This document shows positions 3,014 through 48,374 of a DNA stretch of 51,011 bases, piece after piece. The notes below the pieces were generated by a model that was not told where the DNA came from, did no database searches, and saw only the letters and a program-made list of their open reading frames with translations. The stretch comes from Candidatus Segetimicrobium genomatis (GTDB lineage Bacteria; Sysuimicrobiota; Sysuimicrobiia; Sysuimicrobiales; Kaftiobacteriaceae): NCBI GenBank assembly GCA_005882295.1, contig VBAI01000006.1:1-51011 (forward strand), written 5' to 3'. Within the stretch, counting starts at the first letter, position 1, and every line of letters begins with the position of its first letter. Position numbers and translations under genes: made by a program.

Positions 3014-3950
3014 TCAGGGCCCCAGAAGGCGGAAGGCGGCAACGTTGAAGTACTCCTGGTCTGCGGTGATGCGGAGGACGTGTGTGCCGGCGGTAAGGGA
3101 GATGCTACCGAGACCGACCCACCAGAAGACGTCCCATGACCCGGTGTCGGGCACCACCACCGAGCCCGTGACCGGCTGGGTGTCGACGTCCACATGGACC
3201 CGGCTGGCTACGTCCCACCGCCGGCTCACCAGCAACTCGAGCCGATACATCCCCGTCTGCGGGACCTGGATGGTGTATTGCAGCCACTCCCCGGTCTGGA
3301 AGTTGTTGACCACATACGCGCCGTTCGAGTAGCGGCTGATATCAACATCCACGTCGGGGCGGTATTGCCCGCCCTGGTTGCCCGGCGTGAGGTCGTGGTA
3401 GGCGACGCCCTCCCCGCCGTGATCGAAGTCTTCCGCCTCGATCTGCCCCGGCACCGCCGCCGGGGTGCCCGCGAAGGGTGATTCGGCCGGCAGTATTCGC
3501 AGGGCCGCGAAGTTGAAGTACTCCTGGTCGGCGACAATCCGCAGGACATGGGGGCCTGCCGTCAGGGTGATCCCGCCGACACCGACCCACCAGAACGTAT
3601 CCCACGACCCGGTGTCGGGCACCACCACCGAGCCTGTGACCGGCTGATTGTCGATCTCCGCGTGCCAGCGGCTGGTGAGGTCCCACCGGCGGCTCACCAG
3701 CAGGTCGAGCCGGTAGGTCCCCGTCTGCGCGACCTGGATGGTGTACTGCAGCCATTCTCCGGTCTGGAAGTTGTTGACCACATAGGCGCCGTTGGGGTAG
3801 CGGATGATATCGACGTCTTCAGCGGGACGGTACTGGCCGCCCTGATTCCCCGGCGTCAGGTCGTGGTAGGCAACGCCTTCGCCACCCTGGTCGAAGTCTT
3901 CCGCTTCGATCTGTCCCGGCACTGTGGCGGGGCTGCTGAACTTCGCGATG
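3014..3950 (-). repeat. Tandem 468-bp duplication encoding the two CBM6-like modules
   Basis: gttgaagtactcctggtc recurs at about 3044 and about 3512. The two units align along their length at roughly 85% identity by eye. Confidence 0.8.
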
Positions 3951-6148: not shown

Positions 6149-6230
6149 ACGGATCCTCGCCCGGGGGCGGCAGGTGGACGCGCCTCCGCCTGGCGGCTCG
6201 ACCAGACATTGCCGTCCGTGGAAACTCAGA

Positions 6231-7574
6231 TTAGTCGCCAGAGGGGGGTACGTGCATCGCGGACACCTCGAGCGAGGGCCGCAGCCTCGCGGAGTGGGAC
6301 CCGGCAGCGCCGCGGGTGAGATCGACGACGATGTGCTCGGGACGCGAGGCAGCGAGCGCGCGCCGCGCCTCCTCGCTTGCACTGCCGATCACGAGGACCT
6401 CCGCGTGGTCCAACATCGCTTCGACACTCTCGCACATCAGCGAGGCGATGTGCGGAATCTCCTCCTCGATATAGCGGCGGTTCGCGCCAACCAGCCTGGC
6501 CACCGCGACGTTGGGATCGATGACCCGCACGTCAAGACCCTTGCCGATCAACGCCTCCACCAGCGCCACCATCGGGCTCTCGCGGAGGTCGTCGGTGCCC
6601 GGCTTGAACGCCAGACCCACGACGCCGACACGCCGCTTGCGTGTGCCCAGCACGGCCTCGATGGCCCGGCGAACCTGGAGTTCGTTGGAGGGCAGGATTG
6701 CCGAGAGCACGGGGGACGGGAGGTCAGCGGCCCGCCCGGCGGAGACGAGCGCCCGCAGATCCTTGGGGAGACACGACCCTCCGAAGGCGAAGCCGGGGCG
6801 CAGGTACGCCTCGGAGATGTTGAGTTTATGGTCCATCAAGAACACCCGCATGACGTCGTGCGGGTTCACCTCCCACGCAGCGCACAGGTCACCGATCTCA
6901 TTCGCAAAACACACCTTCAGCGCGTGGAACGCGTTGGAGACATATTTGATCATCTCCGCCGTGCGCACGGCGGTCTCGATGAACGGCGCGGCGACTCCGT
7001 CATAGAGTGACCGCACCACTGCGGCGGTCGCCGGATCGGCGCACCCCACGAGCACGAATGGCGGGTCCGCAAAGTCGTGCAGCGACGAGCCCTCGCGCAT
7101 GAACTCCGGGTTCACTGCGACCCGCACCGGGCCATCCAGCAGACGCCCTGCCCCCGCCGACAAGGCTGGGATCAGCACGCCCTCGGTCGTGCCTGGCAGG
7201 GCCGTGCTGCGCAGCACCACCGTGTAGGCGCGATCCCGGCGGCGGAGGGCGGACCCGATCTCCCGCCCCACCTGCTCCACGGCGCTCACATCCGGCCGCC
7301 CGTTCGCGCGGCCGGGCGTGCCGACGCAGATCATCGCCAGGTCCGTCTCACCGACGGCGTCGTCGCTGGAGGTCGTGGCCCGCAGATACCCCTGCTGAGT
7401 CATCTCGGCCAGTACGGCTTCCAATCCGGGCTCAACGACCGGCGGCGTGCCGGCGTTGACCATGGCCACCTTCTCCGCATTGACATCCACGCCGATCACG
7501 CGGTGTCCGGCCCTCGCCAGCCCCGTCGCGGTCACACACCCCACATACCCCAGCCCAAAGATGCTAACGCGCAT
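6231..7574 (-). CDS. algD: GDP-mannose 6-dehydrogenase (AlgD-like)
   Basis: [55 protein letters not shown] tracks P. aeruginosa AlgD ([31 protein letters not shown]...SPIVEPGLEALL) as I recall it. Also present: [53 protein letters not shown]. Confidence 0.8.
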   Translation of the reverse strand: [447 protein letters not shown]

Positions 7575-8814: not shown

Positions 8815-10345
8815 GAGCGCCGACGTCTACCCCGATATCGCGCCCGTCGGTCCCCATGTTGGCGTACGGGCTCGTCGAGGCCAGCCGGTAGTCGCCGGCA
8901 GCGGCGTTGACAAAGCCCACGTCATCCAGCGACGCGGGAAAGAAGTTGTCCGGGGGATATTGGGCCGCATTCCCGCCCACCAGCACATTGCGGGCGAACA
9001 CGGCGAACGGGAAATAGGTGTCGAGGGTGAGCATCGGGTTGCCATACGTGTTATCGCCGCCCACCCCGTAGAGGTTGTGCGGAGCGATATTGTTGGTGAA
9101 GACGAACCCGATGTGCGCCCGGCCGGCCGCCGCGATCACGCTGTCGGTCTGGAACGCCGTGTTGTGGTCGATGACCACGTCCGCCGCCCCGTCGATGAGC
9201 TGGAACAGCCGCCCGAGCCCTCCCCATCGTGGACCACCGACATCGTCGAACAGGTTGTTCTGAATCAGAATGCGCTTCGTCTGCTCGCTCGGATAGTTAT
9301 TGTCCCAGCCCAGGAGATGGATCCCATTGGCGGTGTGTCGAACGACGTTGTTGACGAAGGCCACGTCTTCGACGACAGACCATGGTGCCCCGCCGTCTTG
9401 ATTGCGCACCGTGAACAGGATGGCGAACCCCGGCTGCTGATCAAACCAGCTGTACTCAAAGCTGTTGCCTTCCACACGCACGCGCCGCGCGTTCTTTAGC
9501 TCAAAGAGGTTCTTGACGACCCATGGGATCCCGGCGTAGTCCGGCTCGTCTGCCTTCCAGGACAGCGGCTTCGCAAACCGATTGCCCCGCACCTCAATGT
9601 CAGCGGGGACCAGTCCCGGGATCGTGGGATCGGCCCCACCGAACATCACGTTCTCCCCCGCCGCTTCCAGGTAGTTGCCGATGATCGTAAACGGCCCCGG
9701 CCCATTCCAGCCCGCGATGGCCTGGGAGTCTGCGTCGCGGTCGTGAAAGTCCGACAGATACGAACCGATCACGGCGAGGCGGGCGCCGTTGAGCACGATC
9801 CCTCGGCGGATGTTCCCGCTGGCGGAGCCGTGGATATAGCAGCGATAGAAGACGATGTCCGTGGGAACTTGATCGACTGACGTCTGCGCGGGTGACTCCA
9901 GGTGAATCAGGTTGAGGCCGTCGGCGCTCGAGGTCGTGACTTCGATCCCGACGAACATGTAGTGATGGGCTCCGGCCGCCGTGCGGATCGCCGGGAGCGC
10001 GTTGGGGCTGATGATTTTCGGCATGAGTGTCGCCTGCGCGGGCTGCAGGAGGACGCCCGGCGGCGGCAGGCGCCAGAATGCGGATGAGTACACTACGACC
10101 CAACCCGTTCCGGGCCTGCTGGCCAGGGTGAAGTTGCCAACGAACGTGGCCCCGGCCGGCAGTTCAATGAAATCCCCTGGCTGGGCTGCGTCAAGAGCGG
10201 CCTGTAAATCGCCGCCTGACGGAACCCTGACCACCCGGGGCAAGGATGGTGCCGTCGCACCGAGCGCGGCCGCGGGCGCGCGTAGTGGAACACCACACGC
10301 CATCACCGCGAGCAGGGAAAGCAGCAGAAGACGCGTCATACGCAT
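8780..10345 (-). CDS. Secreted right-handed parallel beta-helix protein, paralogue 2
   Basis: ATG at 10345 has GGGAGA 6 nt upstream. An alternative ATG at 10339 forms an ATGA overlap with the asnB stop. Signal peptide MRMTRLLLLSLLAVMACGVPLRAPAAALG. Paralogous to the 1388-2968 product, including the DFHDR motif. Confidence 0.65.
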   Translation of the reverse strand: MRMTRLLLLSLLAVMACGVPLRAPAAALGATAPSLPRVVRVPSGGDLQAALDAAQPGDFIELPAGATFVGNFTLASRPGTGWVVVYSSAFWRLPPPGVLLQPAQATLMPKIISPNALPAIRTAAGAHHYMFVGIEVTTSSADGLNLIHLESPAQTSVDQVPTDIVFYRCYIHGSASGNIRRGIVLNGARLAVIGSYLSDFHDRDADSQAIAGWNGPGPFTIIGNYLEAAGENVMFGGADPTIPGLVPADIEVRGNRFAKPLSWKADEPDYAGIPWVVKNLFELKNARRVRVEGNSFEYSWFDQQPGFAILFTVRNQDGGAPWSVVEDVAFVNNVVRHTANGIHLLGWDNNYPSEQTKRILIQNNLFDDVGGPRWGGLGRLFQLIDGAADVVIDHNTAFQTDSVIAAAGRAHIGFVFTNNIAPHNLYGVGGDNTYGNPMLTLDTYFPFAVFARNVLVGGNAAQYPPDNFFPASLDDVGFVNAAAGDYRLASTSPYANMGTDGRDIGVDVGALVGALLQWWGP

Positions 10346-34820: not shown

Positions 34821-36230
34821 TCAGAAGCGCCCGGTCGCGAGGAGCCGGACAAGGAGGTCATTTGAGCGGGCCAGATAGGCTGAGGCTGCGACCACAGTCA
34901 CGGCGGTGAGACCGGCGGCGAGGGCGCTCAGAAAGAACCGCAGGCGACGCCCGCGTGCATCCCCACCCGTGATAATCGGCGGAATGCTGACCAGCACGGG
35001 CACGCTGGTGAATGCGCGCAGGTCGTCGAGCGTGTGGAAGGACGTATCACGCGCCTCGGCCAGCCCGGCCACGCCGACGGCGCCCGCCGCCGACATCGCC
35101 AGCCCCACCAGCAGGATGAGGAGACGGCGCGGGGCCACCGGATGTTGGGGCGCCACCGCGGAGTCCAGGATGCGCAGTTGCCCGCCCTGCGGGCCCTGCT
35201 CCATCCGTTCTGCCAGCCGCGCCTCTTCGTAATGCTGCAGCAGTGACTGGTAGATCTGCTTCGTGGCCTCATACTCTCGGGAGAGCTGGAGATCCTCATC
35301 GGTGCGCGAGACGGGCGCGGTCCCCGGACCCGCGGCGGCGATGGTCCGCCGGAGCGCGCGTTCCTCGTCGCGGAGCGCGGTCAGCTGAGCTTCCACCTCG
35401 GCGATCCCGTCGCGCAACTGGCGTGCCTGGTTCGCGGAATAGGTTGCGATGGAGGTCGGCTGGGGGGAGCCGCTGACCTCGGTCAGGCGCTTGACGAGGC
35501 CGTCACGCCGTTCTCGTGCCTGGGCCTGTTTCTCGATGTTCACCCGCAACTGCCCGTTGAGCCGATCCATCGCCTGCGGGGTCGGGCCCTGCAGATTCAC
35601 AGGCGGCGCGGCACGGCCTCCCTGGCGCTCACTGAGCCTGCGCTCCAAACCCTCGAGCTGCAGCCTGGCATCCTCGAGCTGCACGCGCAGGAACTGAGTC
35701 GTGCCCGCGGCCTGCTGCTGGCGGATGTTGGCGTTCTCCTCGACGAAGAGCATGGCCAGCGCATTGGCCACCCGCGCCACGGTGTCGGGATCACGCCCCC
35801 GATAGCTCAGGTTGAGCGTGATGGTCCAGTCCCGCCCGATCGGGTCCCGAATCTCCTGGAACTGCAATCCGATGTCCCGGCGAAGGCGCGCCGCGATCTC
35901 CTCAGGGGTCGCCCGCGCGCGCAACTCCGGATAGAGGTTGTACTGCGTGATCAGCTCCACGAGGCGCGAGCGACTGAGAATCCGCTGGCTGATGGTGCGC
36001 AGCCTGGTCTCCAGCTCGCTGGCCACCGACGGACCAACCAGGCGCTCCTCGACCTGCTGAGGCTCCACGATCAGGGTCGCCGTCGATTCGTAGATCGGCG
36101 GCATGGCACGCGTCGCCCCTGCGGTCGCAGCCAGGGGGATCAGGAAGGCCAGGACGGCCAGCCACTTCCGGCGGTGCCACACCGCGAGCGCCGCATCAAA
36201 ACCGGAACGCGTCTGCAACGTATTCTGCAT
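34821..36230 (-). CDS. Polysaccharide co-polymerase / chain-length determinant (Wzz/GumC-like)
   Basis: N-terminal TM (WLAVLAFLIPLAATAG), a long coiled-coil periplasmic region, and a C-terminal TM pair. Adjacent to the BY-kinase. Confidence 0.75.
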   Translation of the reverse strand: MQNTLQTRSGFDAALAVWHRRKWLAVLAFLIPLAATAGATRAMPPIYESTATLIVEPQQVEERLVGPSVASELETRLRTISQRILSRSRLVELITQYNLYPELRARATPEEIAARLRRDIGLQFQEIRDPIGRDWTITLNLSYRGRDPDTVARVANALAMLFVEENANIRQQQAAGTTQFLRVQLEDARLQLEGLERRLSERQGGRAAPPVNLQGPTPQAMDRLNGQLRVNIEKQAQARERRDGLVKRLTEVSGSPQPTSIATYSANQARQLRDGIAEVEAQLTALRDEERALRRTIAAAGPGTAPVSRTDEDLQLSREYEATKQIYQSLLQHYEEARLAERMEQGPQGGQLRILDSAVAPQHPVAPRRLLILLVGLAMSAAGAVGVAGLAEARDTSFHTLDDLRAFTSVPVLVSIPPIITGGDARGRRLRFFLSALAAGLTAVTVVAASAYLARSNDLLVRLLATGRF

Positions 36231-36276
36231 GCTACGAGACTCCCGTCGTTGTCATCGTCAGGACCGGCCCATGCCG

Positions 36277-36385
36277 GCCAAGTGGGGCGGACGGCGCCAC
36301 TTGGTTGGACCGAGGTCCGCGGTCACGACCGGCGGCGTTCGCCGGCCGTTCGGAGTCCGCCCCGCGCGCCCCCGTCTCACCTGAC
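36277..36385 (-). ncRNA. Conserved GC-rich structured element, copy A (between the propeller-1 stop and the wzz-like start)
   Basis: 36288-36369 aligns with 43568-43648 at about 68 of 82 positions with one 1-nt indel (hand alignment). Contains an 8-bp hairpin, ccaagtgg/ccacttgg. Contains a 9-bp stem, cggccggcg/cgccggtcg, that is maintained in copy B through GC<->GU changes. Confidence 0.5.
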
Positions 36386-36411
36386 CGTCCCCACAAATCA
36401 CGGGCACGCGC

Positions 36412-38331
36412 TCATCGAGGTCCCGCGTCGTGGGCCTGATTGTTCCCCTTCTCGAGGGTTCCGGACACGTCCAGGATGATGAACCCAAATGCGTCCCTGA
36501 TCACGATCCGCGCGGTGTCGCTCGTACCCGGCTCCCCGGCATCGGTGAACGTCCACTCCACCGTGTAACCGCTGACGCCGTTGTAGCGCCCGGTGCCACT
36601 GCCGCGATGTGTATCAAACGACGCGCTCGGTGGATCTGGACTGATGCTCGGATCATCGGAACACGAGGCAGACGAAACCTGCTCGAGGTGGAACCTGTTG
36701 CCGCTCGCCCAGTTGACTTCCAGCGCGTCATGACCTCGGCTGGGCGGACAGAGCAGAACAAAGCCATACGTCACTTTCGTGCCGTCGCTGGCAGAGAGCC
36801 GCCCACCGCCGGTCATCCGGCCGGGCACCGTCCCCCCGGGCGGCGGGGCGGTGATGGCTCCACTGTGGAATTCGAAGTGCTTGTTGCCTTTCAGGTACGC
36901 GCCAGCGATCCGTTGTGTCGCGTACACTCCCGTCAGGCCCGATGGGAACCCGTTGCCGGCATCCCCGATCGGCGTCCCATCGACAGACAGCAGTGGATTG
37001 GGCATCGGCGAGAACCGCTGGATCCCCGACCCGCCCACCGGCGTGACCTGGTGCACAGTGGGGACGATCGCCGTCCGCAGGGGAGACACCTCCTCGTCGA
37101 ACATCCTGGCAATCACCTTGACCACAGGCGTCGAAAACGTCTGGGCCGCGACGATGGTGCAGACACGGTTCGGGAAGGACGCCTGGTCGGCCTCGGCCTG
37201 CGTCAGCACGCTGACGGAGTTCCCGTTTCCTTCTGTGAAGACGACTTGCAGCTGGTCGCCTGACCCCACGGTCACAATCTGCTGAGGATTACTCAGCCCC
37301 GGGGTGGTGTATTCGCAAATCTCGTTGCCGCTGAGCCGCCCGATCTTGCCGGAGTTGGATTCGGAAAACCAGATGTTCCCGTTCGCATCTGCGGTAATGA
37401 TCCCGTTTGGGTTTTGTTCGCTCTCACTCATGAACAGAGGCGGCCTGATGAAGGCGGGCTGGGTTGGGATCGGCCAGATGCTGATCGTGTCGTCCGCTGT
37501 GCCGAGAATCCCGTCCGCACCGAGGTTCACCCGCACAATGCCGTCTCCGAACACGGAGGAGGTGACGGTGGCGTATGGGCGGCCCGCCGGGTCGATCGTG
37601 ACGTAGCTCGGGTTCCCGCAGCTCGCGCCACCGCTGCCACACGATCCCCCGAAGTTCCATACCGTGGCTTCCGCTGTCGGGGGGTGGACCCGGCTGATGC
37701 GGCCTTCCCACGGCTGGGCCAGAAAGACGTCCCCCGAGGCCTCGTCAACCTCGACCCCAAACACCTGTGAGGTCGGCGGCAGCAATCCATTGTCCGTCGC
37801 ATAAGAACGGAAGCAGTCAGTCCCGGCGAGGTGCACATACAAAGGTTCGTTCTGCTGCCCGCCCACCCACACATCGCCCGCGCCGAAGGAGGCCCCGCAG
37901 GGCCCTCCCGCCAGCACGGGCCCACCTCCGCGATTGATATCCACTCCGCCGGGGAACCCGCTGGAAGGCGGCACAGGCATGGTGAGGGAATACCCACCCG
38001 GCATCGTCTTCCCATACCACACAAAGACGTTGCCCTCCGGGTTCCAGTACGAAACCCCGGAAGGTCCTCCGGGATTGGTGCCGCGTGCGTACACGGTCAC
38101 CACGGTCGGAAAACTCGTGCCGTGCCCGGTGAGCCCATCAGGATCCTCCACCGATTCGCCGGGTGTCATCCCCAGGCTGATGGACGGCGGGATGGGGGTG
38201 GCCGTATCCCAGACTTTGACCGTGGCCGCTGGCGGATCCACCGCCGATGCCAGCCTGGTGCCGGCGGAGACACTCATCACCATCACCAGGACCAGCACGG
38301 AAACAACCGCCCGCGCCTTCATCGATCGCAT
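36412..38331 (-). CDS. Secreted Vgb-like/NHL-like beta-propeller protein with an extra C-terminal TGGG...GNNQAH domain (propeller 1)
   Basis: GGAGGA 5 nt upstream of ATG 38331. Signal peptide MRSMKARAVVSVLVLVMVMSVSAG. Repeat ANGNIWFSESNSGKIGRLS resembles streptogramin-lyase-type blades. Clearly paralogous by eye to the 41994-43493 product. The C-terminal 137 aa (36412-36825) are homologous to the 43917-44522 product. Confidence 0.65.
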   Translation of the reverse strand: MRSMKARAVVSVLVLVMVMSVSAGTRLASAVDPPAATVKVWDTATPIPPSISLGMTPGESVEDPDGLTGHGTSFPTVVTVYARGTNPGGPSGVSYWNPEGNVFVWYGKTMPGGYSLTMPVPPSSGFPGGVDINRGGGPVLAGGPCGASFGAGDVWVGGQQNEPLYVHLAGTDCFRSYATDNGLLPPTSQVFGVEVDEASGDVFLAQPWEGRISRVHPPTAEATVWNFGGSCGSGGASCGNPSYVTIDPAGRPYATVTSSVFGDGIVRVNLGADGILGTADDTISIWPIPTQPAFIRPPLFMSESEQNPNGIITADANGNIWFSESNSGKIGRLSGNEICEYTTPGLSNPQQIVTVGSGDQLQVVFTEGNGNSVSVLTQAEADQASFPNRVCTIVAAQTFSTPVVKVIARMFDEEVSPLRTAIVPTVHQVTPVGGSGIQRFSPMPNPLLSVDGTPIGDAGNGFPSGLTGVYATQRIAGAYLKGNKHFEFHSGAITAPPPGGTVPGRMTGGGRLSASDGTKVTYGFVLLCPPSRGHDALEVNWASGNRFHLEQVSSASCSDDPSISPDPPSASFDTHRGSGTGRYNGVSGYTVEWTFTDAGEPGTSDTARIVIRDAFGFIILDVSGTLEKGNNQAHDAGPR

Positions 38332-38461: not shown

Positions 38462-39088
38462 TCAGGTGGGGACCACATCGGTGCAGTCCACTTCTACGGC
38501 AACGCTTTGCTGCAGCAGCGCCACGGAGAGCACGAGCAGGCCCCGGCGCGGGTCCTGCCGCACCAGGATGCCCTGCACATCAGCCAGCGGCCCGCGGATG
38601 ATGCGGACACGCTGTCCTTCTTGCAAATAGGCGTGCGGGAGGACGGGAAGACGGGCTCCGACCACAGTTTGCACCGCCTCAATTTCCTGATCCGGTACGG
38701 CAGACAGGCGGTCCCAGCGCTCACCCAGAATGGCGACCAGCCCCCGGGCCTTTCGCACCTCGATGTAGTGAGCCTTGTCCATGGCAGACCGCAGGAACAA
38801 ATATCCGGAAAACATCGGCACCCGGATGCGCCGCCGCGCTCCTCCGCGCCGCGACCACACCTCCACGGTGGGCAGGAACAACTCAAACCCCCGCGCGATG
38901 AGCTGGTCGTAGACCAGTCGCTCGCAGTGACTACGAGTCCATAACGCATACCATCGCGAGCCCGCGACAGGCGTGGCCTCGGCGAGATCATAGCGTCCGG
39001 GATGTGATGGTGTGATAGAAGTCGCAACTGGCAAGGCTTCGCCCCCTTCGGTTCGCGCCGTATCGGGCTCAAACCGAGTCGTCACCAT
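38462..39088 (-). CDS. NusG/RfaH-family transcription antiterminator paralogue (NGN + KOW)
   Basis: NGN-like WYALWTRSHCERLVYDQLIARGFELFLPTVEVWSRR...PMFSGYLFLR. KOW-like LQEGQRVRIIRGPLADVQGILV. Start uncertain: ATG 39088, or the ORF is open to GTG 39151. Confidence 0.75.
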   Translation of the reverse strand: MVTTRFEPDTARTEGGEALPVATSITPSHPGRYDLAEATPVAGSRWYALWTRSHCERLVYDQLIARGFELFLPTVEVWSRRGGARRRIRVPMFSGYLFLRSAMDKAHYIEVRKARGLVAILGERWDRLSAVPDQEIEAVQTVVGARLPVLPHAYLQEGQRVRIIRGPLADVQGILVRQDPRRGLLVLSVALLQQSVAVEVDCTDVVPT

Positions 39089-39248
39089 AGCGAATTTATT
39101 TTTCCCACAGAGTCTGCTCTCGACAATGACCGAGTCGCCGCTGGATTCCACGCGGCGGCAGGGAGAGCGCCCCTGGTCAAACGAGGTGAGGGACTCGAGA
39201 GCAGGCTGTGATTCCAGATGCGCACGCCGAAAGGCTCACTGCCTACAC

Positions 39249-39343
39249 GATATTTCCCCGCGGACCGCCTCAAAATCGGGTCGGCGCCGAGATGGATGCC
39301 GGGAAAAGACCTGATGTGAACATGGGGAAACACCTGATGTGGG
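39249..39343 (-). promoter_or_regulatory. Promoter-like module, copy 1 (upstream of the nusG-like operon head, in the divergent intergenic region)
   Basis: Plus strand: GATATTTCCCC at 39249. GGGAAAAGACCTGATGTGA at 39301. GGGGAAACACCTGATGTGG at 39324. Boxes are 23 bp apart and the first box lies 53 bp from the GATATTT box. Confidence 0.55.
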
Positions 39344-39536
39344 ATCTCTCATTGGATAGCGCCCGGTGATGGTCGGGGGAGTCCCCATCAGGTGCTGAAC
39401 CGCCTGATCCTCGGCAGTTTTCTCCGGCTCACCCCGCAGGCTCTGTGGGAAAAAGACCCTAGTGGAGATAGGCAGCCATGAGGCGCCAGCTCCACTGGTG
39501 AGGGCGGGGGCGTCTGTGGAGGGTTGGTAGTCTGTT

Positions 39537-40757
39537 GTGGTCCCCAAGGCATTCGATGCACTGGTGCTTGACGCACGGTTGAGGCAGGCGCTCGTCGCGG
39601 TGCGCTCCCTTGGCCGGCGGCACCTTGCGGTCGCCGCACTAGAGAATTCCAGCGCCCCGCCGGCGTTCTGGTCCCGGTGGTGCCGGCAAGGATTTGCCTG
39701 CCAGGCGGACGACGCCAGCCCTGGCTATCTGGCCTATCTTGAGCAGGTGCTGGAACGTATGGGCGTGGGCGTGCTGATTCCCTCGGCCGATGGCACGATC
39801 GCGCTGCTCCGCCGGCACCGCGCGCGGCTGGACGCGCGCGTACGGATTGCGCTGGCGGACGAGCCATCGCTGGCCGTTGTGGTGAACAAAGAGCGCACCC
39901 TGGCGATGGCGAGGCATCTGGGGATCGGTGTCCCGCCGAGCGTTGTCGTCGGCACGGCGAGTGAGGTGCCGGCCGCTCTGAACGAGATTGGTCTTCCGGC
40001 AGTCGTGAAGCCCAACGAGTCATGGGCCGAGGGTGTGGGGACGCGAGTCGTGTCCCAGCTCGTCACCACCCCTGGCGAAGCCCACCGTGCCGTCGAGGCA
40101 TTGACGCGCGCGGGGGGCGTCACGCTGCTCCAGCCCCTGCTCTCGGGAAGGCGCGAGGCCGTCAGCCTCCTGTACGCCCGCGGGCGGATCTACGCGCGCT
40201 TCGCGCAATGGGCAAAACGAACCCGACCGCCGCTGGGGGGAGAATCGATTGTGCGCCAGAGCATCGCCGTCCCCGCTGACATTGGCCGTCAGGCCGAACA
40301 GCTGGTCCGGGAACTCGACCTTGAAGGCTATTGCGAGGTCGAGTTCCGGCGTGACGGGACCGGCGTGCCCTACCTGATGGAGATCAACCCGCGACTCTCG
40401 GCATCCGTGGAGATCGCGGTGCGGTCGGGAGTTGACTTCCCGTACCTGCTGTACCAGTGGGCGAGCGGCGGGCCGATTGAGACGGTGACGGGCTATCGGA
40501 CCGGCACCTGGATGCGATATCTGCTCGGCGACATCATGACGACCATCGCCGCAGCCAGGCAGCGGGGGCGGCCAGGTGTGCCGCCACCGGCCCGGGCGAT
40601 GCTGGACTTCGGCCTGGCGTTCTTCCAGCCGATGGGGTACGACTGTGCCGATTGGACCGATCCGCTCCCCGCGGTCAAGGCGGCCGCGAATTTCATGCGT
40701 CAATCGGTCAAGGTCATCGGCCGAACCCTGCCCCGTTCCTGGAAGCAAGTTCTGTGA
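39537..40757 (+). CDS. ATP-grasp family ligase
   Basis: GLPAVVKPNESW, GVTLLQPLLSGRREAVSLLY, and the EVEFRRDGTGVPYLMEINPRLSASVE Mg/ATP-binding motif. GTG start at 39537. Confidence 0.7.
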   Translation: MVPKAFDALVLDARLRQALVAVRSLGRRHLAVAALENSSAPPAFWSRWCRQGFACQADDASPGYLAYLEQVLERMGVGVLIPSADGTIALLRRHRARLDARVRIALADEPSLAVVVNKERTLAMARHLGIGVPPSVVVGTASEVPAALNEIGLPAVVKPNESWAEGVGTRVVSQLVTTPGEAHRAVEALTRAGGVTLLQPLLSGRREAVSLLYARGRIYARFAQWAKRTRPPLGGESIVRQSIAVPADIGRQAEQLVRELDLEGYCEVEFRRDGTGVPYLMEINPRLSASVEIAVRSGVDFPYLLYQWASGGPIETVTGYRTGTWMRYLLGDIMTTIAAARQRGRPGVPPPARAMLDFGLAFFQPMGYDCADWTDPLPAVKAAANFMRQSVKVIGRTLPRSWKQVL

Positions 40758-41977
40758 TGCGTACCCTGAGGATGGACGCGTCGCATCCTTCTCCGCCGGC
40801 GGCGCGGTATGATGCCGTAGTCGTCGGCGCGGGTCCGTACGGTCTGTCCACCGCGGCCCACCTCCTGGAGTCGGGCCTCGCGGTCGCCGTCTTTGGGAAG
40901 ACGGCGGAGATGTGGCACCGCCACATGCCCAAGGGGATGTTCCTGCGATCCCACTGGTGGGCAACCAGCCTTTCCGATCCACGCCGGCGGTTCGGATTCG
41001 ACCGCTTCTTCAGCGACTCTCAATATGAGAAATGTTATCCCGTGCCGCGGGAGGTGTTTCTCGACTACGCGTGCTGGTTCCAGCGCCACGCCGTCCCCAC
41101 TGTCGACAACACCTATGTCTCGTCGGTTGAACGGCGCGGCGACCACTTTCTCGTCACACTGGCCGACGGACGGCAGGTGCACAGCGCGACGGTGATCATG
41201 GCCACGGGTCTCGCCTACTATGCGCACGGGCCGAACCAGTATCGTGATTTGCCCGCAGCGCTTGTCTCGCATTCCAGCGCCCACAGCGACCTCACCCGGT
41301 TCGCGGGACGGCGAGTCATCATCATCGGCGGCGGGCAAAGCGCGGTGGAGTATGCGGCGCTGTGCCGGGAGGCCGGAGCCAGCGTCCATCTCGTCACGCG
41401 TCGACCCATTACCTGGCTGGTCCCAGATCGGCAGAACCGCAGCACGCTGCTGGACCGCATCCTGGCCCCAGACGCCAGCATCGCGCCGGGGTGGAAAAAC
41501 CTGCTGCTGGAAGCCATGCCCTATGCCTTCTACCGTCTCCCCCAGCCGCGCAAAGATCTATGGATCCGCACGTATTACCTCGCCGCCGCCTCCCATTGGT
41601 TGAAAGAGCGCGTGCTCGGCAAGGTCACATTGCACGAAGGCTGTGTGGTGGGGAAGACAGAGCCGCGGGACGGCGAATTCGAGGCGGTCATTTCTGACGG
41701 CACGCGGGTCAGCGCCCATCAGCTGATCCTGGCCACGGGATACCGCGTGGACCTCGGCAGGCTGACGATGCTCCATCCGGCGCTGCGGGCCGAAATTCGC
41801 GCGGACCAGGCCAGCCCGCTGTTGAATCCCTGGTTTGAAAGCAGCGTGCCGGGACTGTACTTTGTCGGACTGACCTCGTTGCGCGCTTTCGGTCCCCTGT
41901 TTCGATTTGTGGCGGGATGCGATGCGACGGCGTGGCGCGTGGCGAGATCCATCGTCCGGACCCGCGCGCGGCGCTAG
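40757..41977 (+). CDS. FAD/NAD(P)-dependent oxidoreductase (flavin monooxygenase-like, two dinucleotide-binding motifs)
   Basis: YDAVVVGAGPYGLSTAAHL and RVIIIGGGQSAVEYAA. ATG at 40757 shares one base with the ATP-grasp TGA (TGATG). Confidence 0.65.
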   Translation: MRTLRMDASHPSPPAARYDAVVVGAGPYGLSTAAHLLESGLAVAVFGKTAEMWHRHMPKGMFLRSHWWATSLSDPRRRFGFDRFFSDSQYEKCYPVPREVFLDYACWFQRHAVPTVDNTYVSSVERRGDHFLVTLADGRQVHSATVIMATGLAYYAHGPNQYRDLPAALVSHSSAHSDLTRFAGRRVIIIGGGQSAVEYAALCREAGASVHLVTRRPITWLVPDRQNRSTLLDRILAPDASIAPGWKNLLLEAMPYAFYRLPQPRKDLWIRTYYLAAASHWLKERVLGKVTLHEGCVVGKTEPRDGEFEAVISDGTRVSAHQLILATGYRVDLGRLTMLHPALRAEIRADQASPLLNPWFESSVPGLYFVGLTSLRAFGPLFRFVAGCDATAWRVARSIVRTRARR

Positions 41978-41993: not shown

Positions 41994-43493
41994 TCAAGGC
42001 GACCCGATGATCGCTCCGCTGGTGACCTCGAAGTGCTTGTTCCCTTTCAGATACGCCCCTGCGATCCGGTTCCCCCCGTAGACGCCCGTGAGGCCCGAGG
42101 GGAAACCATTGCCTGCGTCCCCGCTGGGGGCCCCGCCCAGCGACAGCAACGGGTTGGGCATCGGCGAGAATCGCACGATGCCAGTCCCTGCGTCGATTCC
42201 CGCCACCTGAAAAACTGTCGGGGTGATCACCCATCGCACCGGCGGCACCGTCTGATCGAGCATCGCCGCGGTGGCGAAGAGGACGGGTGTCGCGAAGGTG
42301 GAGGGAGCCACGGGAGTGCAGACGGAGCCGGCCAGATCGGCCTGGGCCTGCGCGAGCACGCTGACGGAGTTGCCATCACCCTCTGTAAAGAGCGCCTGCA
42401 CCTGGCTGGCCGAACCGGTCACCGCGATTTGTTGCGGGTTCAGGAGTCCGGCAGTCGTATACACGCAGATCTGGTCACCGGCTGTCCCCAGCACGCCGGA
42501 GGGGCCGGGACTCAGCCGCCCGATCGCATTCGCATTCGTCATTGCAAACCACATGCTTCCGTTGGCGTCTGCGGCGAGACCATCGGGATTTCCGAACTGC
42601 GCCGATTCTTCGAGGAACATGGGCGGCCGGCGGAACGCGGACACGCCGTTGACGGTGGGGATCGGCCACACGGTGATCGTGTCATCCGCGTCCCCAAGAA
42701 TCCCATCGGTGCCGGGATTCACGCGAATGATGGCGTCCCCGAGGACCGAGCTGTATGAGGTGGTGTAAGGAAGTCCAGCGCGATCCACCGTCACAGACGA
42801 CGGATTACCGCAGGTCGCGCTGTTGCAGGAGTCTCCAAAGTTCCACGCCGTGACGAACCCGTCCGAAGGGTGAACCCGGATGATGCGGCGCTCCCAAGGC
42901 TGCGCGACGTACACGTCCCCCGTCGAGGCATCCACCTTCACGCCCCAGGCCTCCCCGAACGGCCCGGTCAGCCGATTGTCCGCGCCATAGGAGCGGAAGC
43001 AGTCCGTCCCGGCGAGGTGCACGTAGAGGGGTTGGTTCTGCTGCCCACCGACCCACACATCACCCGCGCCGAAGGACGTCCCGCAAGGCCCTCCCGCCAG
43101 TACGGGCCCGCCGCCGCGATTGATATCCACCCCGCCTGGAATCCCCGTAGAGGGGGGCTTCATGGGTTCAGGCGCCGTGGGATCGGGATAGCCGGGATAC
43201 GGACCCGAGCTGGTCACCCCGTACAACACGAACGTGTTGCTGTCAGGGTTCCAGTACACGACCCCGGACGGCGCCCCCGGGTAGGTACTGCGCGCGTAGG
43301 CGGTGACGATGGTGGGCAGAGTGGTGCCGTGTCCGGTCAAACCGGTCGGGTCTTCGAGCGACACACCGGGGGTCAGCCCCAACGGAACGGCCGTATCCCA
43401 GACCTTGACGGTGGCGGGGAGAGCCACCGATGCATAGGTCCATGAGGTAACAAGCAACAACATGACAGATACGAACGTCACCCGTCGCACCAT
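41994..43493 (-). CDS. Secreted Vgb-like/NHL-like beta-propeller protein (propeller 2, lacks the C-terminal domain)
   Basis: GAGGTG 6 nt upstream of ATG 43493 (the ORF is open to GTG 43502). Signal peptide MVRRVTFVSVMLLLVTSWTYASVA. Shares ATVKVWDTA, GIPGGVDINRGGGPVLAGGPCG.SFGAGDVWVGGQQN.PLYVHLAGTDCFRSY and GNGFPSGLTGVY...IAGAYLKGNKHFE with propeller 1. Confidence 0.65.
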   Translation of the reverse strand: MVRRVTFVSVMLLLVTSWTYASVALPATVKVWDTAVPLGLTPGVSLEDPTGLTGHGTTLPTIVTAYARSTYPGAPSGVVYWNPDSNTFVLYGVTSSGPYPGYPDPTAPEPMKPPSTGIPGGVDINRGGGPVLAGGPCGTSFGAGDVWVGGQQNQPLYVHLAGTDCFRSYGADNRLTGPFGEAWGVKVDASTGDVYVAQPWERRIIRVHPSDGFVTAWNFGDSCNSATCGNPSSVTVDRAGLPYTTSYSSVLGDAIIRVNPGTDGILGDADDTITVWPIPTVNGVSAFRRPPMFLEESAQFGNPDGLAADANGSMWFAMTNANAIGRLSPGPSGVLGTAGDQICVYTTAGLLNPQQIAVTGSASQVQALFTEGDGNSVSVLAQAQADLAGSVCTPVAPSTFATPVLFATAAMLDQTVPPVRWVITPTVFQVAGIDAGTGIVRFSPMPNPLLSLGGAPSGDAGNGFPSGLTGVYGGNRIAGAYLKGNKHFEVTSGAIIGSP

Positions 43494-43561
43494 GTGCATC
43501 ACCTCAAGAGGTGCCGTGAGAGTTATTTTCGTGATAGCCTTCTAGGCACTGCCGGACCAGG

Positions 43562-43662
43562 CAAGGTGGACGGCGCCACTTGGTCTGACGAGGTCCATGG
43601 TTACGGCCGACGGTGGGCGCCGGCCATCCGGAATCCGCCCCGCGCGCCGTCCGCCCCACCTG
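43562..43662 (-). ncRNA. Conserved GC-rich structured element, copy B (in the leader of propeller 2)
   Basis: See copy A. Lies between promoter-like module copy 2 and the propeller-2 start. Confidence 0.5.
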
Positions 43663-43735
43663 GTTCGGCGATTGATGGTTCCTACAGTGCACTCTAGATC
43701 GGGATTTCCGCATCCGGAAGCTCACTTCCCAAGAA

Positions 43736-43826
43736 GATATTTCCCACAGGCGCATCCGGCACCGACGAGATCCAGCAGACATCACCGAGGAAAAGACCGG
43801 ATGTGATAGGGGTAAAATCCTGATGT
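43736..43826 (-). promoter_or_regulatory. Promoter-like module, copy 2 (upstream of propeller 2)
   Basis: GATATTTCCC at 43736. GAGGAAAAGACCGGATGTGA at 43787. GGGGTAAAATCCTGATGT at 43809. Same 53-bp and 22-bp spacings as copy 1. An additional shared box: CGCA..CCG.AAG.CTCACT at 39221 and 43708. Confidence 0.55.
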
Positions 43827-43916
43827 ACTCTCCTCCCAATGTGTGAGCGGGCACAGCAACCGGGGGAGCCCCTCGCCTGGGCTCCCCCGGAGCAGGACGT
43901 GACCCGTTGCATACCT

Positions 43917-44522
43917 CTACGTGAACGCGAACGGATCGGGCAGGCTGTCGCAAGACGGCGGGGCGCTCGGCGCCGTGTTCGACCGGTTGCCCTTGTGGAG
44001 CTGGATGTTGCCGCCCGACAGGAAGTTCTGGTTCAGATAGATGAGCGATCCACCGTAGAATAGCGCGATCCCGAACGCGTCACTGTTGCGGCCCGGCTCT
44101 CCCAGGTCCCGCATCCGGACGCGATACTGCACGGGGCCTCCCGCATTCGTGTCGGCGTTGCCGCAGATATCACGGGTGCCGCGCGGATGCCCGTTCTTGT
44201 CAGGCGGGTAGTCGGCGACCACGATGTACCCGGTGACATCCCGGGCGTGGACGTGGAAGGGACTCTGTCCAAACGCTCCCCCGTGGTCGACGTAGTTCCC
44301 GTTCCCCCACCAGTCGCCGTTCTTCACGCCGCCGTGCCACCCGAAGTTCGCCCGGGAACCCGGCACGGATGTGACTGAATACGGGGGCGGCGGGGTGAAG
44401 ATAAATCCTCCGCCGGTGATGAAGTCGAGCCCCACCGGCCACGCGCCGGCGGGGGTCGCGATGGCGGCTATCAGCCCTCCGATCAGGAGGGAGATCGCAA
44501 GTTTCATTCCGAGGTTTCGCAT
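43917..44522 (-). CDS. Secreted protein consisting of a stand-alone TGGG...GGNIQLH domain
   Basis: GGAGGAG 6 nt upstream of ATG 44522. Signal peptide MRNLGMKLAISLLIGGLIAAIATPAGA. Shares ITGGG, FGW, FHV, DLGEPG..D and L.GGN.Q.H motifs with the C-terminus of propeller 1. Confidence 0.6.
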   Translation of the reverse strand: MRNLGMKLAISLLIGGLIAAIATPAGAWPVGLDFITGGGFIFTPPPPYSVTSVPGSRANFGWHGGVKNGDWWGNGNYVDHGGAFGQSPFHVHARDVTGYIVVADYPPDKNGHPRGTRDICGNADTNAGGPVQYRVRMRDLGEPGRNSDAFGIALFYGGSLIYLNQNFLSGGNIQLHKGNRSNTAPSAPPSCDSLPDPFAFT

Positions 44523-44543: not shown

Positions 44544-45197
44544 TTACGGTATCGCCGCCGACGCAGACGCGAGCGCCAGGTCGACGGACCCATCAAGTGT
44601 AGTAATGTGCAACGCAGTCACGGCGATGCCGCTGGCCGACTGCGTCACTTCGTTCAGCACGATCATGAGACCCCCCACGTAGACCGTCTGGTTCGGGTCT
44701 CCGGTAGGGACGATCGACACGCCGTTCACGACCAGGCCGTCCACCAGGGAGTAGCCGTAGGTAGACGACCCCGCAAAAGCGTTGGCCATGACAAACGCGG
44801 CCGAAATCGTGCTGCCCCCGCCCGACAGGACCAGGTCGCCGAGGGACGACGCAGACGCGACATAATCGCCGTTGCCAATCGTCGTGGCCTCCAGGGTGCC
44901 CGCGGTGCCGAGGCCCGCGATGCTCGCAGTGTCCAGCGACGCGGCGAGTGCGTCAGAGGCACTCGTCAGTGTGCCCGTGGACAGAAGCGTTGTTGTAGTC
45001 CCGGCGATAGTCACCACCGCCCCCGTGGCGCCCGTGACGTCCGGCGAGATTGATGTTCCGCCTCCCCCGGGCAGCGGTAATGGGAGGGGCAATGGCAAGG
45101 GCAGCTGCGCGCTCGCCGGACCGGGGCCCGCGGCGAATACGGTCAGCCCAACGACCAGCGCAACAATGCCCAACCGCACATACCTCGTGGTACTCAT
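44544..45197 (-). CDS. Secreted Ala/Gly/Thr/Ser-rich protein with a post-signal (LP)6 tract
   Basis: GGAGG 6 nt upstream of ATG 45197. MSTTRYVRLGIVALVVGLTVFAAGPGPASA then QLPLPLPLPLPLPGGGG. The C-terminal part (VYVGGLMIVLNEVTQSASGIAVTALHITTL) is beta-rich. The family is not recognised with confidence. Confidence 0.55.
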   Translation of the reverse strand: MSTTRYVRLGIVALVVGLTVFAAGPGPASAQLPLPLPLPLPLPGGGGTSISPDVTGATGAVVTIAGTTTTLLSTGTLTSASDALAASLDTASIAGLGTAGTLEATTIGNGDYVASASSLGDLVLSGGGSTISAAFVMANAFAGSSTYGYSLVDGLVVNGVSIVPTGDPNQTVYVGGLMIVLNEVTQSASGIAVTALHITTLDGSVDLALASASAAIP

Positions 45198-47606: not shown

Positions 47607-48374
47607 TCAGGTCGATGAAGGAATCCGCGAGAGACGGGGGGACTTCCGGGGCCAAGGCCAGGGGGGCCGGCGCTTGGCGAGCACGCCGAGGATGAGGTTG
47701 ATGCATCCGGCCAGATCGGCCTGCCCAAACCATTGCTGCTCAACCGCCAACAACCGCGCCGCCGTCTCGCCAAGCGGTCTCCCCGTGTCTCGGCTGCGGC
47801 GGTTCATGTACTGAAACGCTTCTGCTTCCCCAAGGTCCAGCCGCCGCATCAACAGCGCCTTCGCGTGCTCGAGCACCACTCTGGTGCGCAGGGCCTGCTG
47901 CAGATCGCCGACCTGCTCGCACAGGATTCGAAACTCTCCGAATCGGGTGAGGGCCGCTGTGAGAGCGGACTCCAACGCGATGACATCTGACGGCCACAGC
48001 AGATGGGCCAGGACGCCTGCCTCCTGGGCGCGCCGCACGTGATCATCGACGCCGTAGTCAGCAACCAGGACGAGGGGCATGGCCCGCCTGGCGAGGATCG
48101 CGCGGGCCGCCTCGATGCCGCCCAGCGGTGGCAGGTGCAAATCGAGCAGGAGGAGATCCGGTTCCAGGCTTGAGGCAGACGCCAGCATCGCCGCTTGATC
48201 CCTGACGACGCCCAGCACATGATGGCCCAGGGCGTCCAGTTGCGCAGACAGGCGGGACGCGACGAACTCCATCTCCTCAGCAATCAGCACCCGCAACTCT
48301 CGCACGACTACCCCCAGGCGGTCTTGATGATCTGATCGGCGGCCATCCTGAGCCTCGACTAGTATTTTCCTCAA
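47607..48374 (-). CDS. Response regulator with ANTAR RNA-binding output domain (AmiR/NasR-like)
   Basis: Receiver domain (LRVLIAEE...DLLLLDLHLP...). ANTAR helix pattern RVVLEHAKALLMRRLDLGEAEAFQYMNRRSRDTGRPLGETAARLL. Start uncertain: TTG 48374, or an internal GTG. Confidence 0.75.
   Translation of the reverse strand: MRKILVEAQDGRRSDHQDRLGVVVRELRVLIAEEMEFVASRLSAQLDALGHHVLGVVRDQAAMLASASSLEPDLLLLDLHLPPLGGIEAARAILARRAMPLVLVADYGVDDHVRRAQEAGVLAHLLWPSDVIALESALTAALTRFGEFRILCEQVGDLQQALRTRVVLEHAKALLMRRLDLGEAEAFQYMNRRSRDTGRPLGETAARLLAVEQQWFGQADLAGCINLILGVLAKRRPPWPWPRKSPRLSRIPSST

Follow-up and report, generated by a model that had tools for sequence, protein, structure and literature searches.

A hairpin-forming element of 111 nucleotides (nt) occurs twice in a 51-kb stretch of DNA from Candidatus Segetimicrobium genomatis (contig VBAI01000006.1, positions 1 to 51,011; the whole stretch is called the window below). 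Judged from its sequence, it is a previously undescribed conserved structured element of a PEP-CTERM-type exopolysaccharide locus, lying in a leader (copy B and the orthologues in other lineages) or between two cistrons (copy A). It is conserved between lineages, its stems covary, its copies all lie on the sense strand of the downstream genes, in corresponding positions in the related lineages, and it is associated with the gene for a specialised NusG paralogue. The explanation preferred here, tentatively, is that it is a cis-acting RNA hairpin by which the paralogue encoded in the locus acts on RNA polymerase.

Two copies of the element in the window

All features of the window are read in transcript orientation, which is the minus strand. 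The initial annotation had reported that two segments, 36288-36369 and 43568-43648, match at about 68 of 82 positions, and that the similarity extends beyond them to about 100 nt. A recount gave 67 identical positions out of 82 aligned, with gaps at the ends or of 1 nt. The full unit measures 111 nt, with limits that were verified against the sequence: copy A spans 36276-36386, in agreement with the earlier 36277-36385, and copy B spans 43555-43665. The local alignment of the two copies scores 59, whereas random 111-nt windows drawn from this sequence, approximately 2000 of them, scored 11.8 ± 2.5 and never more than 22. In an nhmmer search of the 51-kb window with a two-copy profile, copy A was recovered with an E-value of 2.7e-34 and copy B with 1.1e-36. 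No third copy was found in the window with this profile, and the covariance model built later agrees.

Copy A is intercistronic. The stop codon of the propeller-1 gene (36412) precedes it by 26 nt and the start of the GNVR/Wzz gene (36230) follows after 46 nt. Copy B lies in a leader: a promoter-like module is upstream of it, and the ATG of the propeller-2 gene (43493) is 61 nt downstream. Both placements had been described before and were confirmed. The copies are separated by indels of 1, 2 and 4 nt, so they share no common reading frame and coding is excluded, as had been claimed when the overlapping open reading frames (ORFs) were called not conserved as protein. The substitutions are paired across the stem and lack a 3-nt period. 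By these features the element is non-coding and hairpin-forming, and it lies on the transcribed strand in both of its regions, one a leader and the other intercistronic.

Secondary structure and covariation

Seven distinct copies, those of the window and those of the related lineages described below, were aligned by hand to the structure (alignment A7), and each row was checked against its source DNA. RNAalifold, run on two and then on all seven copies, returned one long hairpin. The modelled architecture is a single irregular hairpin of about 111 nt, with a closing stem P1, a middle region P2 and an apical stem P3. Over the seven copies, 93.3% of the cells in the 41 proposed pairs are standard-paired, compared with 31-46% when the partners are slid by 1-3 columns. 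Both partners have changed in seven pairs, of which five belong to outer P1 and one each to P2 and P3. The covariation score of 0.233 was reached by none of 500 shuffles, which gave 0.179 ± 0.017. Base-pair covariation, which the initial annotation had named as a test, is therefore present. The compensatory changes include GGUGGGG/CCYCACC to GGUACGG/CCGUACC in L074, a U-A pair that became C-G in L111, two outer positions that alternate between A-U and G-C, and a G-C pair of P3 that became A-U in L066 and L111.

P1 has about 21 pairs. In copy A its 5' arm (GGUCAGGUGAGACGGG-GGCGCGC, 36364-36386) pairs with its 3' arm (UGGCGCCGUCCGCCCCACUUGGCC, 36276-36299), and the outer half covaries (columns 2-12 with 105-115). 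In copy B the arms are at 43642-43665 (AACCAGGUGGGGCGGACGGCGCGC) and 43555-43578 (UGGCGCCGUCCACCUUGCCUGGUC). None of the copies varies in the inner half of P1 (GGACGGCGC / GCGCCGUCC), which adjoins a conserved C.A mismatch; the stem also carries a bulged G. YGGCGCCGUCC, in the 3' arm, is the most conserved stretch of the element family, and about 50 positions are invariant across lineages. P2 contains asymmetric internal loops; its register is ambiguous, since two alternatives fit equally and no covariation separates them. The unpaired segments GACC (after P3), GGACC and CCAAG are invariant or nearly so in the seven copies. CCAAG occupies the 3' asymmetric internal loop (36300-36304 in copy A); its AAG is the same in 7/7 copies and its first two positions nearly so, with L060 and L074 departing.

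P3 is a stem of 6-10 base pairs (bp) with the apical loops AACGC, CCCAC, CUGC, CCCU or larger. Copy A has it at 36325-36349 (ACGGCCGGCG-AACGC-CGCCGGUCGU) and copy B at 43603-43627 (AUGGCCGGCG-CCCAC-CGUCGGCCGU). This is the 9-bp stem of the initial annotation, present in both copies and 10 bp long with the closing A-U pair counted. A second hairpin, ccaagtgg...ccacttgg (CCAAGUGG/CCACUUGG), had also been proposed. It can be drawn in copy A and is not conserved in the other lineages: of the aligned copies inspected, those of L060, L061 and L066 lack the complementary arm, and the local hairpin was rejected in favour of long-range P1. The 3' arm of the supposed second hairpin pairs instead with the upstream arm CAGGUG (the shared CACCTG at the DNA level), which closes the long hairpin. 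The element was thus mistaken for two independent hairpins and is modelled as one.

With the covariance model R1, copy A scores 104 bits and copy B 132.5 bits, and the copies other than A score 109-132. The minimum free energy of copy B is -75.6 kcal/mol (z = -4.1 relative to shuffled sequences). No other copy is as irregular as copy A, with its 1-nt deletion that leads to a bulged G and its two A.C mismatches in the closing stem. Its invariant core, P3 and CCAAG are intact.

Sense orientation, facing the downstream genes, was found for 7/7 distinct copies. The covariance model gives 104-132 bits on the sense strand versus 16-27 bits on the antisense strand, and the sense strand has 29 G.U cells versus 9 A.C cells. 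Assignment of the strand from folding energy was dropped as uninformative.

The element in related lineages

Scans of public collections were conducted with short patterns. The two-anchor pattern GCGGGGCGGA-N40-65-CAAGTGGCGCC matched 25 genome and 24 metagenome contigs, all by chance according to nhmmer, and the collections evidently do not contain the source genome. In viral contigs a 16-nt pattern gave 24 matches, none of which fits the covariance model. As the genome and metagenome scans returned chance matches alone, the relatives were reached solely by way of NusG-paralogue homologues of 61-75% identity and the contigs that carry them; about 150 kb were read.

Five further lineages, all uncultured soil bacteria, have a single sense-strand copy each, 95-200 nt upstream of the start of the NusG-paralogue gene. 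The element coordinates that follow are covariance-model matches including flanks, and the hairpin coordinates are narrower. In L060 the element is at 1070-1203 (hairpin 1084-1193; paralogue start 1335), in L061 at 3549-3688 (3563-3672; 3875), and in L066, to which L067-L070 are identical, at 3605-3750 (3620-3731; 3884). In L074 and L075 (L076 is partial) it is at 5791-5932 (5806-5916; 6001), and in L111 at 1436-1576 (1450-1559; 1774). The arrangement is shared by all five lineages: two upstream genes, the same in each, and a terminator are followed by a promoter-like module, then in the leader by the copy, and then by the paralogue gene, which heads an exopolysaccharide operon; this gene is the first one in L061, L074 and the L062-type loci. 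No other block of the leader approaches the element in conservation, and the remainder is barely alignable between lineages. A scattered repeat of the repetitive extragenic palindromic (REP) or miniature inverted-repeat transposable element (MITE) kind, considered in the initial annotation, does not match the distribution in the DNA that was read, where the 51-kb window has two copies and every related locus a single one, all sense and in the same syntenic position. Ten contigs from the window's own population, with an identical paralogue, are 99.85-99.95% identical with both elements invariant, and therefore carry no information on variation.

The element, hereafter class 1, is absent at six loci with paralogue homologues (L062, L071, L073, L077, L081 and L085). 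The homologues P0009, P0016, P0032, P0041, P0073 and P0093 have no class-1 element by profile hidden Markov model or covariance model. In lineages without class 1, a different conserved long hairpin, class 2, was found at the same position in the leader of the NusG paralogue (L062:7451-7559, L073:3015-3121 and L077:2201-2304). Its outer stem, GAGGGCYCYCAYC / GRUGRGRGCCCUC, shows compensatory changes, its inner portion is GAGCCGG...GGUCCGGU, and CCAAG or CACAAG is apical. The three class-2 paralogues form a clade in a rough neighbour-joining tree. A split into class 1 and class 2 would fit cognate pairs of hairpin and paralogue, as in the UpxY classes.

Copies A and B are 76% identical to one another; either is 72-83% identical to the orthologues and 62-63% identical to the outlier L074. 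Because A and B are no closer to one another than to the orthologues, and neutral leader sequence has diverged beyond alignment, the duplication must be an old one, after which both copies were retained. Duplication extends to the promoter-like module and the propeller gene. The hairpin is found 3' of propeller-1 and 5' of propeller-2, a placement that simple co-duplication with the propeller gene would not produce. The two propeller genes are paralogous over 36842-37931 and 41998-43117, with 74-76% DNA identity.

The NusG paralogue and the genes around the copies

The order of genes in the window was taken from public gene calls (contig VBAJ01000235.1, assembly GCA_005884525.1) together with Pfam and NCBIfam matches. 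The specialised NusG paralogue is encoded at 38462-39088 on the minus strand (208 amino acids (aa); NGN and KOW domains; Pfam NusG 3.7e-17 and KOW). It scores 92 bits against the NCBIfam model for UpxY (NF033644, cut-off 100), 76.6 against RfaH (TIGR01955, cut-off 144.5) and 75.1 against LoaP (NF033641, cut-off 125), and for housekeeping NusG 44, also below the cut-off. By these scores it is a specialised NusG paralogue outside any named family. Its nearest named homologues are from Candidatus Rokuibacteriota and NC10 bacteria, and by these the organism was taken to be uncultured and probably Rokubacteria/Methylomirabilota-like.

The gene of the paralogue has its own promoter-like region without the element, which precedes two other units. 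With filters off, the covariance model found no class-1 hairpin in its leader (38900-39600), the best score being 6.6 bits. A forced MAFFT alignment had suggested a third, relic copy there; this was rejected, as that best score falls elsewhere in the leader. The part of the leader at 39100-39205 on the minus strand contains neither hairpin class and folds into a 10-bp stem, CUGCUCUCGAG/CUCGAGAGCAG, around CGCCGC...GCGGCG (minimum free energy z of about -2).

From the upstream end, the minus-strand genes of the window are a GerE-type response regulator, an ANTAR response regulator, a 102-aa gene, an S8 peptidase, a choice-of-anchor-P protein (44544-45197) and a post-COAP-1 domain protein (43917-44522), the last two by NCBIfam. 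A strong terminator-like GC-rich hairpin (CCGGGGGAGCC...GGCUCCCCCGG, then UUGCUGUG; 43860-43890, minus strand) ends the unit of these two genes. It is conserved in L061, L066, L111, L060 and L062 and separates the upstream unit from the leader. The promoter-like module before copy B (43685-43826, minus strand) has two ACATCMGGnnTTTnCC direct repeats followed by GGGAAATATCT, AGTGAGC and GTGCACTG. It is kept upstream of the element in L061, L066, L111 and L060 and is duplicated in the window, where the second module (39230-39340, minus strand) is upstream of the NusG paralogue, in the leader without a class-1 hairpin. A promoter role of the module is inferred from its sequence and place, and no sigma-70 consensus promoter was found at the modules.

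Copy B is followed by the propeller-2 gene (41994-43493, minus strand; 499 aa), the sole gene before two convergent plus-strand genes, which encode a Pyr_redox/Lys_Orn_oxgnase protein (40757-41977) and an ATP-grasp protein (39537-40757). As these genes between propeller-2 and the NusG paralogue are on the opposite strand, copy B heads a single-gene unit. The initial annotation had placed both copies in one operon, which the intervening genes contradict. The propeller-1 gene (36412-38331, minus strand) lies between the NusG paralogue and copy A. The first gene after copy A encodes a GNVR/Wzz polysaccharide co-polymerase (34821-36230, minus strand) and heads an array of about 25 co-directional polysaccharide genes, which spans about 35 kb down to position ~1388. 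GNVR/Wzz is followed by an AAA_31 kinase-like ATPase, Bac_transf, Wzy_C and glycosyltransferases, then by luciferase-like, AMP-binding, KAS III and deacetylase proteins, UDP-sugar dehydrogenases, an epimerase, a flippase, heparinase II/III and Asn synthase, and at the end by a 1122-aa SBBP/CBM6 protein and further genes to ~1388. The choice-of-anchor-P and post-COAP-1 proteins mark the locus as a PEP-CTERM/exosortase-type exopolysaccharide system.

A possible recruitment signal for the NusG paralogue

Operons for capsule, lipopolysaccharide, toxins and antibiotics are among those that specialised NusG paralogues control. To our knowledge, the way in which these paralogues recognise their operons has been worked out in three cases alone, RfaH, UpxY and LoaP, and the signals differ. 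The initial annotation had listed a loading site for the NusG paralogue of the operon among the possible roles of the element. This idea gains from the position of the element directly upstream of the orthologous paralogue gene in five lineages, and loses from the single-gene unit behind copy B.

We infer transcription of the element, binding of the paralogue and antitermination, which would proceed as follows. RNA polymerase would transcribe the element, and the nascent hairpin would let the paralogue load instead of housekeeping NusG. Alternatively, the conserved 3' arm might be exposed as non-template DNA and the apical part might act as a pause hairpin, again for loading of the paralogue. 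The modified elongation complex would then transcribe the downstream genes without premature termination, which after copy A would mean the ~35-kb array.

Several observations speak for the hairpin as a site of action of the paralogue. The paralogue has its own promoter region and the element precedes two other units, which is the layout expected of a factor and its target sites. Copy A heads a long polysaccharide array, the kind of operon that is served by RfaH, UpxY and EAR. The paralogue scores higher as UpxY, RfaH and LoaP than as housekeeping NusG.

A number of results weigh in the other direction. No canonical terminator was detected after the element in a consensus scan of the window, L061 and L066, which covered the type of hairpin plus T-run alone. 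No E. coli-type ops was found near the leaders, and matches to GGCGGTAGnnTG with one mismatch number 3 in the window where 4.1 are expected. Copy B precedes a lone 1.5-kb gene that would hardly need processive antitermination, and the 111-nt hairpin far exceeds the LoaP hairpin or any ops element. The ANTAR and GerE response regulators of these loci are possible alternative partners. The extra copies were all found via paralogue homologues, and this route of discovery by itself accounts for part of their association with the paralogue. The structural evidence comes from only 7 distinct sequences (about 6 lineages) in an alignment that was hand-fitted to the structure; inner P1, the most conserved part, is invariant and thus uninformative on pairing, and the minimum free energies of the sense and antisense strands are alike.

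That the element represents a new kind of recruitment signal is possible but doubtful. Such a signal would be a nascent-RNA hairpin of about 100 nt in place of a 12-nt ops site in DNA or a small tetraloop hairpin, in at least two classes that co-vary with paralogue clades, and would provide operon-specific targeting to PEP-CTERM exopolysaccharide genes. Factor and targets would be unlinked here, with one paralogue serving both propeller-2 and the 35-kb array. The kind of system, leader elements for NusG paralogues and processive antitermination, is already known; in sequence, size and fold the element is unrelated to ops, opsX, the LoaP hairpin and EAR. If the link to the paralogue is true, it widens the range of recruitment signals and offers a testable RNA-protein pair and a fourth, uncharacterised paralogue clade, from a phylum without cultured members. 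The covariance model would then mark paralogue-controlled exopolysaccharide operons in soil metagenomes. If the link fails, the element still constitutes a new family of structured cis-elements absent from Rfam.

Alternative explanations

There is some chance, although it is not a high one, that the element is a cis-regulatory RNA that acts independently of the paralogue, either as an antiterminator like EAR or put, as the site of another regulator such as an ANTAR protein, or as a ligand-sensing leader. The evidence from conservation, structure and strand is the same for such an RNA as for a hairpin read by the paralogue, and the conserved unpaired GACC, CCAAG and GGACC would suit a protein or a ligand pocket. 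A search of the whole window against Rfam 15, the covariance-model search that had been proposed with the initial annotation, gave no family at gathering score, EAR, put, c-di-GMP riboswitches and JUMPstart included. At E <= 10 nothing credible appeared; the hits around both copies are microRNA and small nucleolar RNA noise alone, at 13-20 bits versus thresholds of 71-268. ANTAR genes are present in the window (47607-48305) and beside the paralogue in L060, L066 and L111, but also in L062 and L073, which lack the element, and none lies within 6 kb in L074, which has it. ANTAR targets are two short tandem hairpins with hexaloops, the second of which overlaps a terminator. The element is instead one long hairpin with loops of 4-5 nt, and no terminator was detected. 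For a riboswitch, a lone extended hairpin without a multi-stem junction would be unusual, and nothing specific favours this role, which the initial annotation had also suggested.

A processing or stability element is about as plausible, and likewise on the unlikely side. The P1 stem might be a site of the RNase III type, or the hairpin might protect the message and set its half-life and the stoichiometry of its products. A helix of about 21 pairs is the size that RNase III recognises, and P1 is long, near-perfect and GC-rich. The positions at the start of the message (copy B and the orthologues) and between cistrons (copy A) suit differential decay, and neither a terminator nor another partner motif would be needed. 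Approximately 50 invariant positions are, however, rare for stabilisers or RNase III sites across lineages with 61-75% protein identity, and the invariant nucleotides of the internal loops and the conserved C.A mismatch suggest specific recognition rather than that of generic double-stranded RNA.

An element that acts as DNA is improbable. It could be an extragenic palindrome or MITE-like repeat, a cruciform operator for GerE-type regulators, or a recombination site through which the region was rearranged. The element is an imperfect palindrome that occurs twice in a rearranged region where the promoter module and the propeller gene are duplicated too, its antisense folding energies equal the sense ones, and the conserved C.A mismatch is a G.U pair on the opposite strand. 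Against this, the 51-kb window contains just two copies and the related loci, of which about 150 kb were read, have one each, in the same orientation to the downstream genes and the same syntenic position, and no copies were found in the three public collection scans with the two-anchor or 16-nt patterns. The compensatory substitutions and the G.U pairs are in keeping with a single strand that folds and not with a protein-bound duplex, and the genes that were scanned or called around the two copies include no transposase or integrase.

It is very unlikely that copy A is a decaying, functionless by-product of the rearrangement and that only the leader copy matters: copy A does have the lowest model score (104 bits versus 109-132), the 1-nt deletion and the two A.C mismatches in P1, and no other lineage has an intercistronic copy, but its similarity to the orthologues (72-78%, L074 62%) equals theirs among themselves where neutral leader is unalignable, and it has lost nothing of the invariant core, P3 or CCAAG.

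Comparison with known systems

LoaP of Bacillus velezensis (dfn/mln) requires a hairpin in the leader RNA if it is to overcome NusA-dependent termination (PMC12691694). Common to that system and the present one are a cis hairpin in a 5' leader, a long biosynthetic operon behind it and a specialised NusG paralogue. The hairpin of LoaP is small, of UNCG type, and followed by a NusA-dependent intrinsic terminator, whereas the present hairpin has 111 nt and the loops AACGC, CCCAC or CUGC, and no terminator was detected after it. The paralogue reaches 75 bits of the 125 required for LoaP, and both phylum and product differ (exopolysaccharide versus polyketide).

UpxY of Bacteroides capsule operons is recruited at opsX pause sites in the leader, aided by nascent hairpins (PMC11685472). 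The similarities to this system are the paralogue gene at the head of a polysaccharide operon, the candidate site just upstream of it in the leader, and the RNA hairpin. The site classes of UpxY differ by operon, and here class-1 and class-2 hairpins differ by lineage. UpxY is also the best NCBIfam match of the paralogue, yet below the cut-off (92 versus 100 bits). In contrast to the element, opsX is a short pause site with a short pause hairpin, and it is read as DNA in the non-template strand and the upstream duplex. A UpxZ-like gene is not evident in the window.

The resemblance to RfaH of enterobacteria lies in a specialised NusG paralogue, long polysaccharide operons and a leader element, and the gene of the factor is apart from its putative target sites in the window. 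Unlike in the RfaH system, there is no ops similar to GGCGGTAGnnTG near the leaders, the JUMPstart motif of Rfam is unmatched, and ops has 12 nt compared to 111 nt with covarying stems.

EAR (eps-associated RNA; Irnov & Winkler 2010, as summarised in PMC7858274) gives processive antitermination in the eps operon of B. subtilis. In Bacillales it is a structured intergenic RNA of ~100 nt or more near chain-length and kinase genes that promotes read-through of the whole operon. Copy A occupies a similar position, the intergenic spacer of an exopolysaccharide operon. The element differs from EAR in having no Rfam match and in being found in a 5' leader in most lineages, and EAR works with no dedicated NusG paralogue. 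The fold of EAR is more complex than a single hairpin.

Further features of the locus

The repeats of the promoter-like module, ACATCAGGnnTTTYCCC about 23 nt apart, resemble sites of response regulators and are followed by GGGGAAATATCT, GCAGTGAGC and GTGTACTG. Counterparts of the module are at L061:3410-3545 and L066:3455-3600. An A-rich motif, (G)GGGAAAAATNAC, recurs between the hairpin and the first gene, close to the gene start, at 43520-43535 and 39095-39110 on the minus strand of the window and at about 3783 in L061, 3863 in L066 and 1685 in L111. It is similar to the upstream GGGGAAATATCT block, and the hairpin is thereby bracketed by two similar motifs. Readings of the flanks as kink-turn (K-turn), attC, sigma-54 or extracytoplasmic function (ECF) promoter were tried by eye and gave no convincing match.

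The ANTAR response regulator (47607-48305, minus strand) is a recurrent neighbour of NusG-paralogue loci (L060, L066, L111, L062 and L073). In L062, L071 and L074 a partner-switching cassette of STAS, anti-sigma kinase, SpoIIE and PAS-HisKA_3 proteins is upstream. Propeller-1, too, ends in a post-COAP-1 domain.

In the polysaccharide array, the 1122-aa SBBP protein (ORF 3014-6382) also contains DUF7948 and two CBM6/CBM35 modules. Its SBBP beta-propeller blades are encoded at 3978-5270 on the minus strand by five or six tandem 195-nt repeats with 67-81% identity. The segments 1588-2680 and 8968-10033 are paralogous as well, 71-76% identical with a constant offset of about 7353 nt, and lie within minus-strand ORFs of 537 aa and 630 aa. 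Neither ORF has a Pfam match, and they represent a gene that was duplicated within the array.

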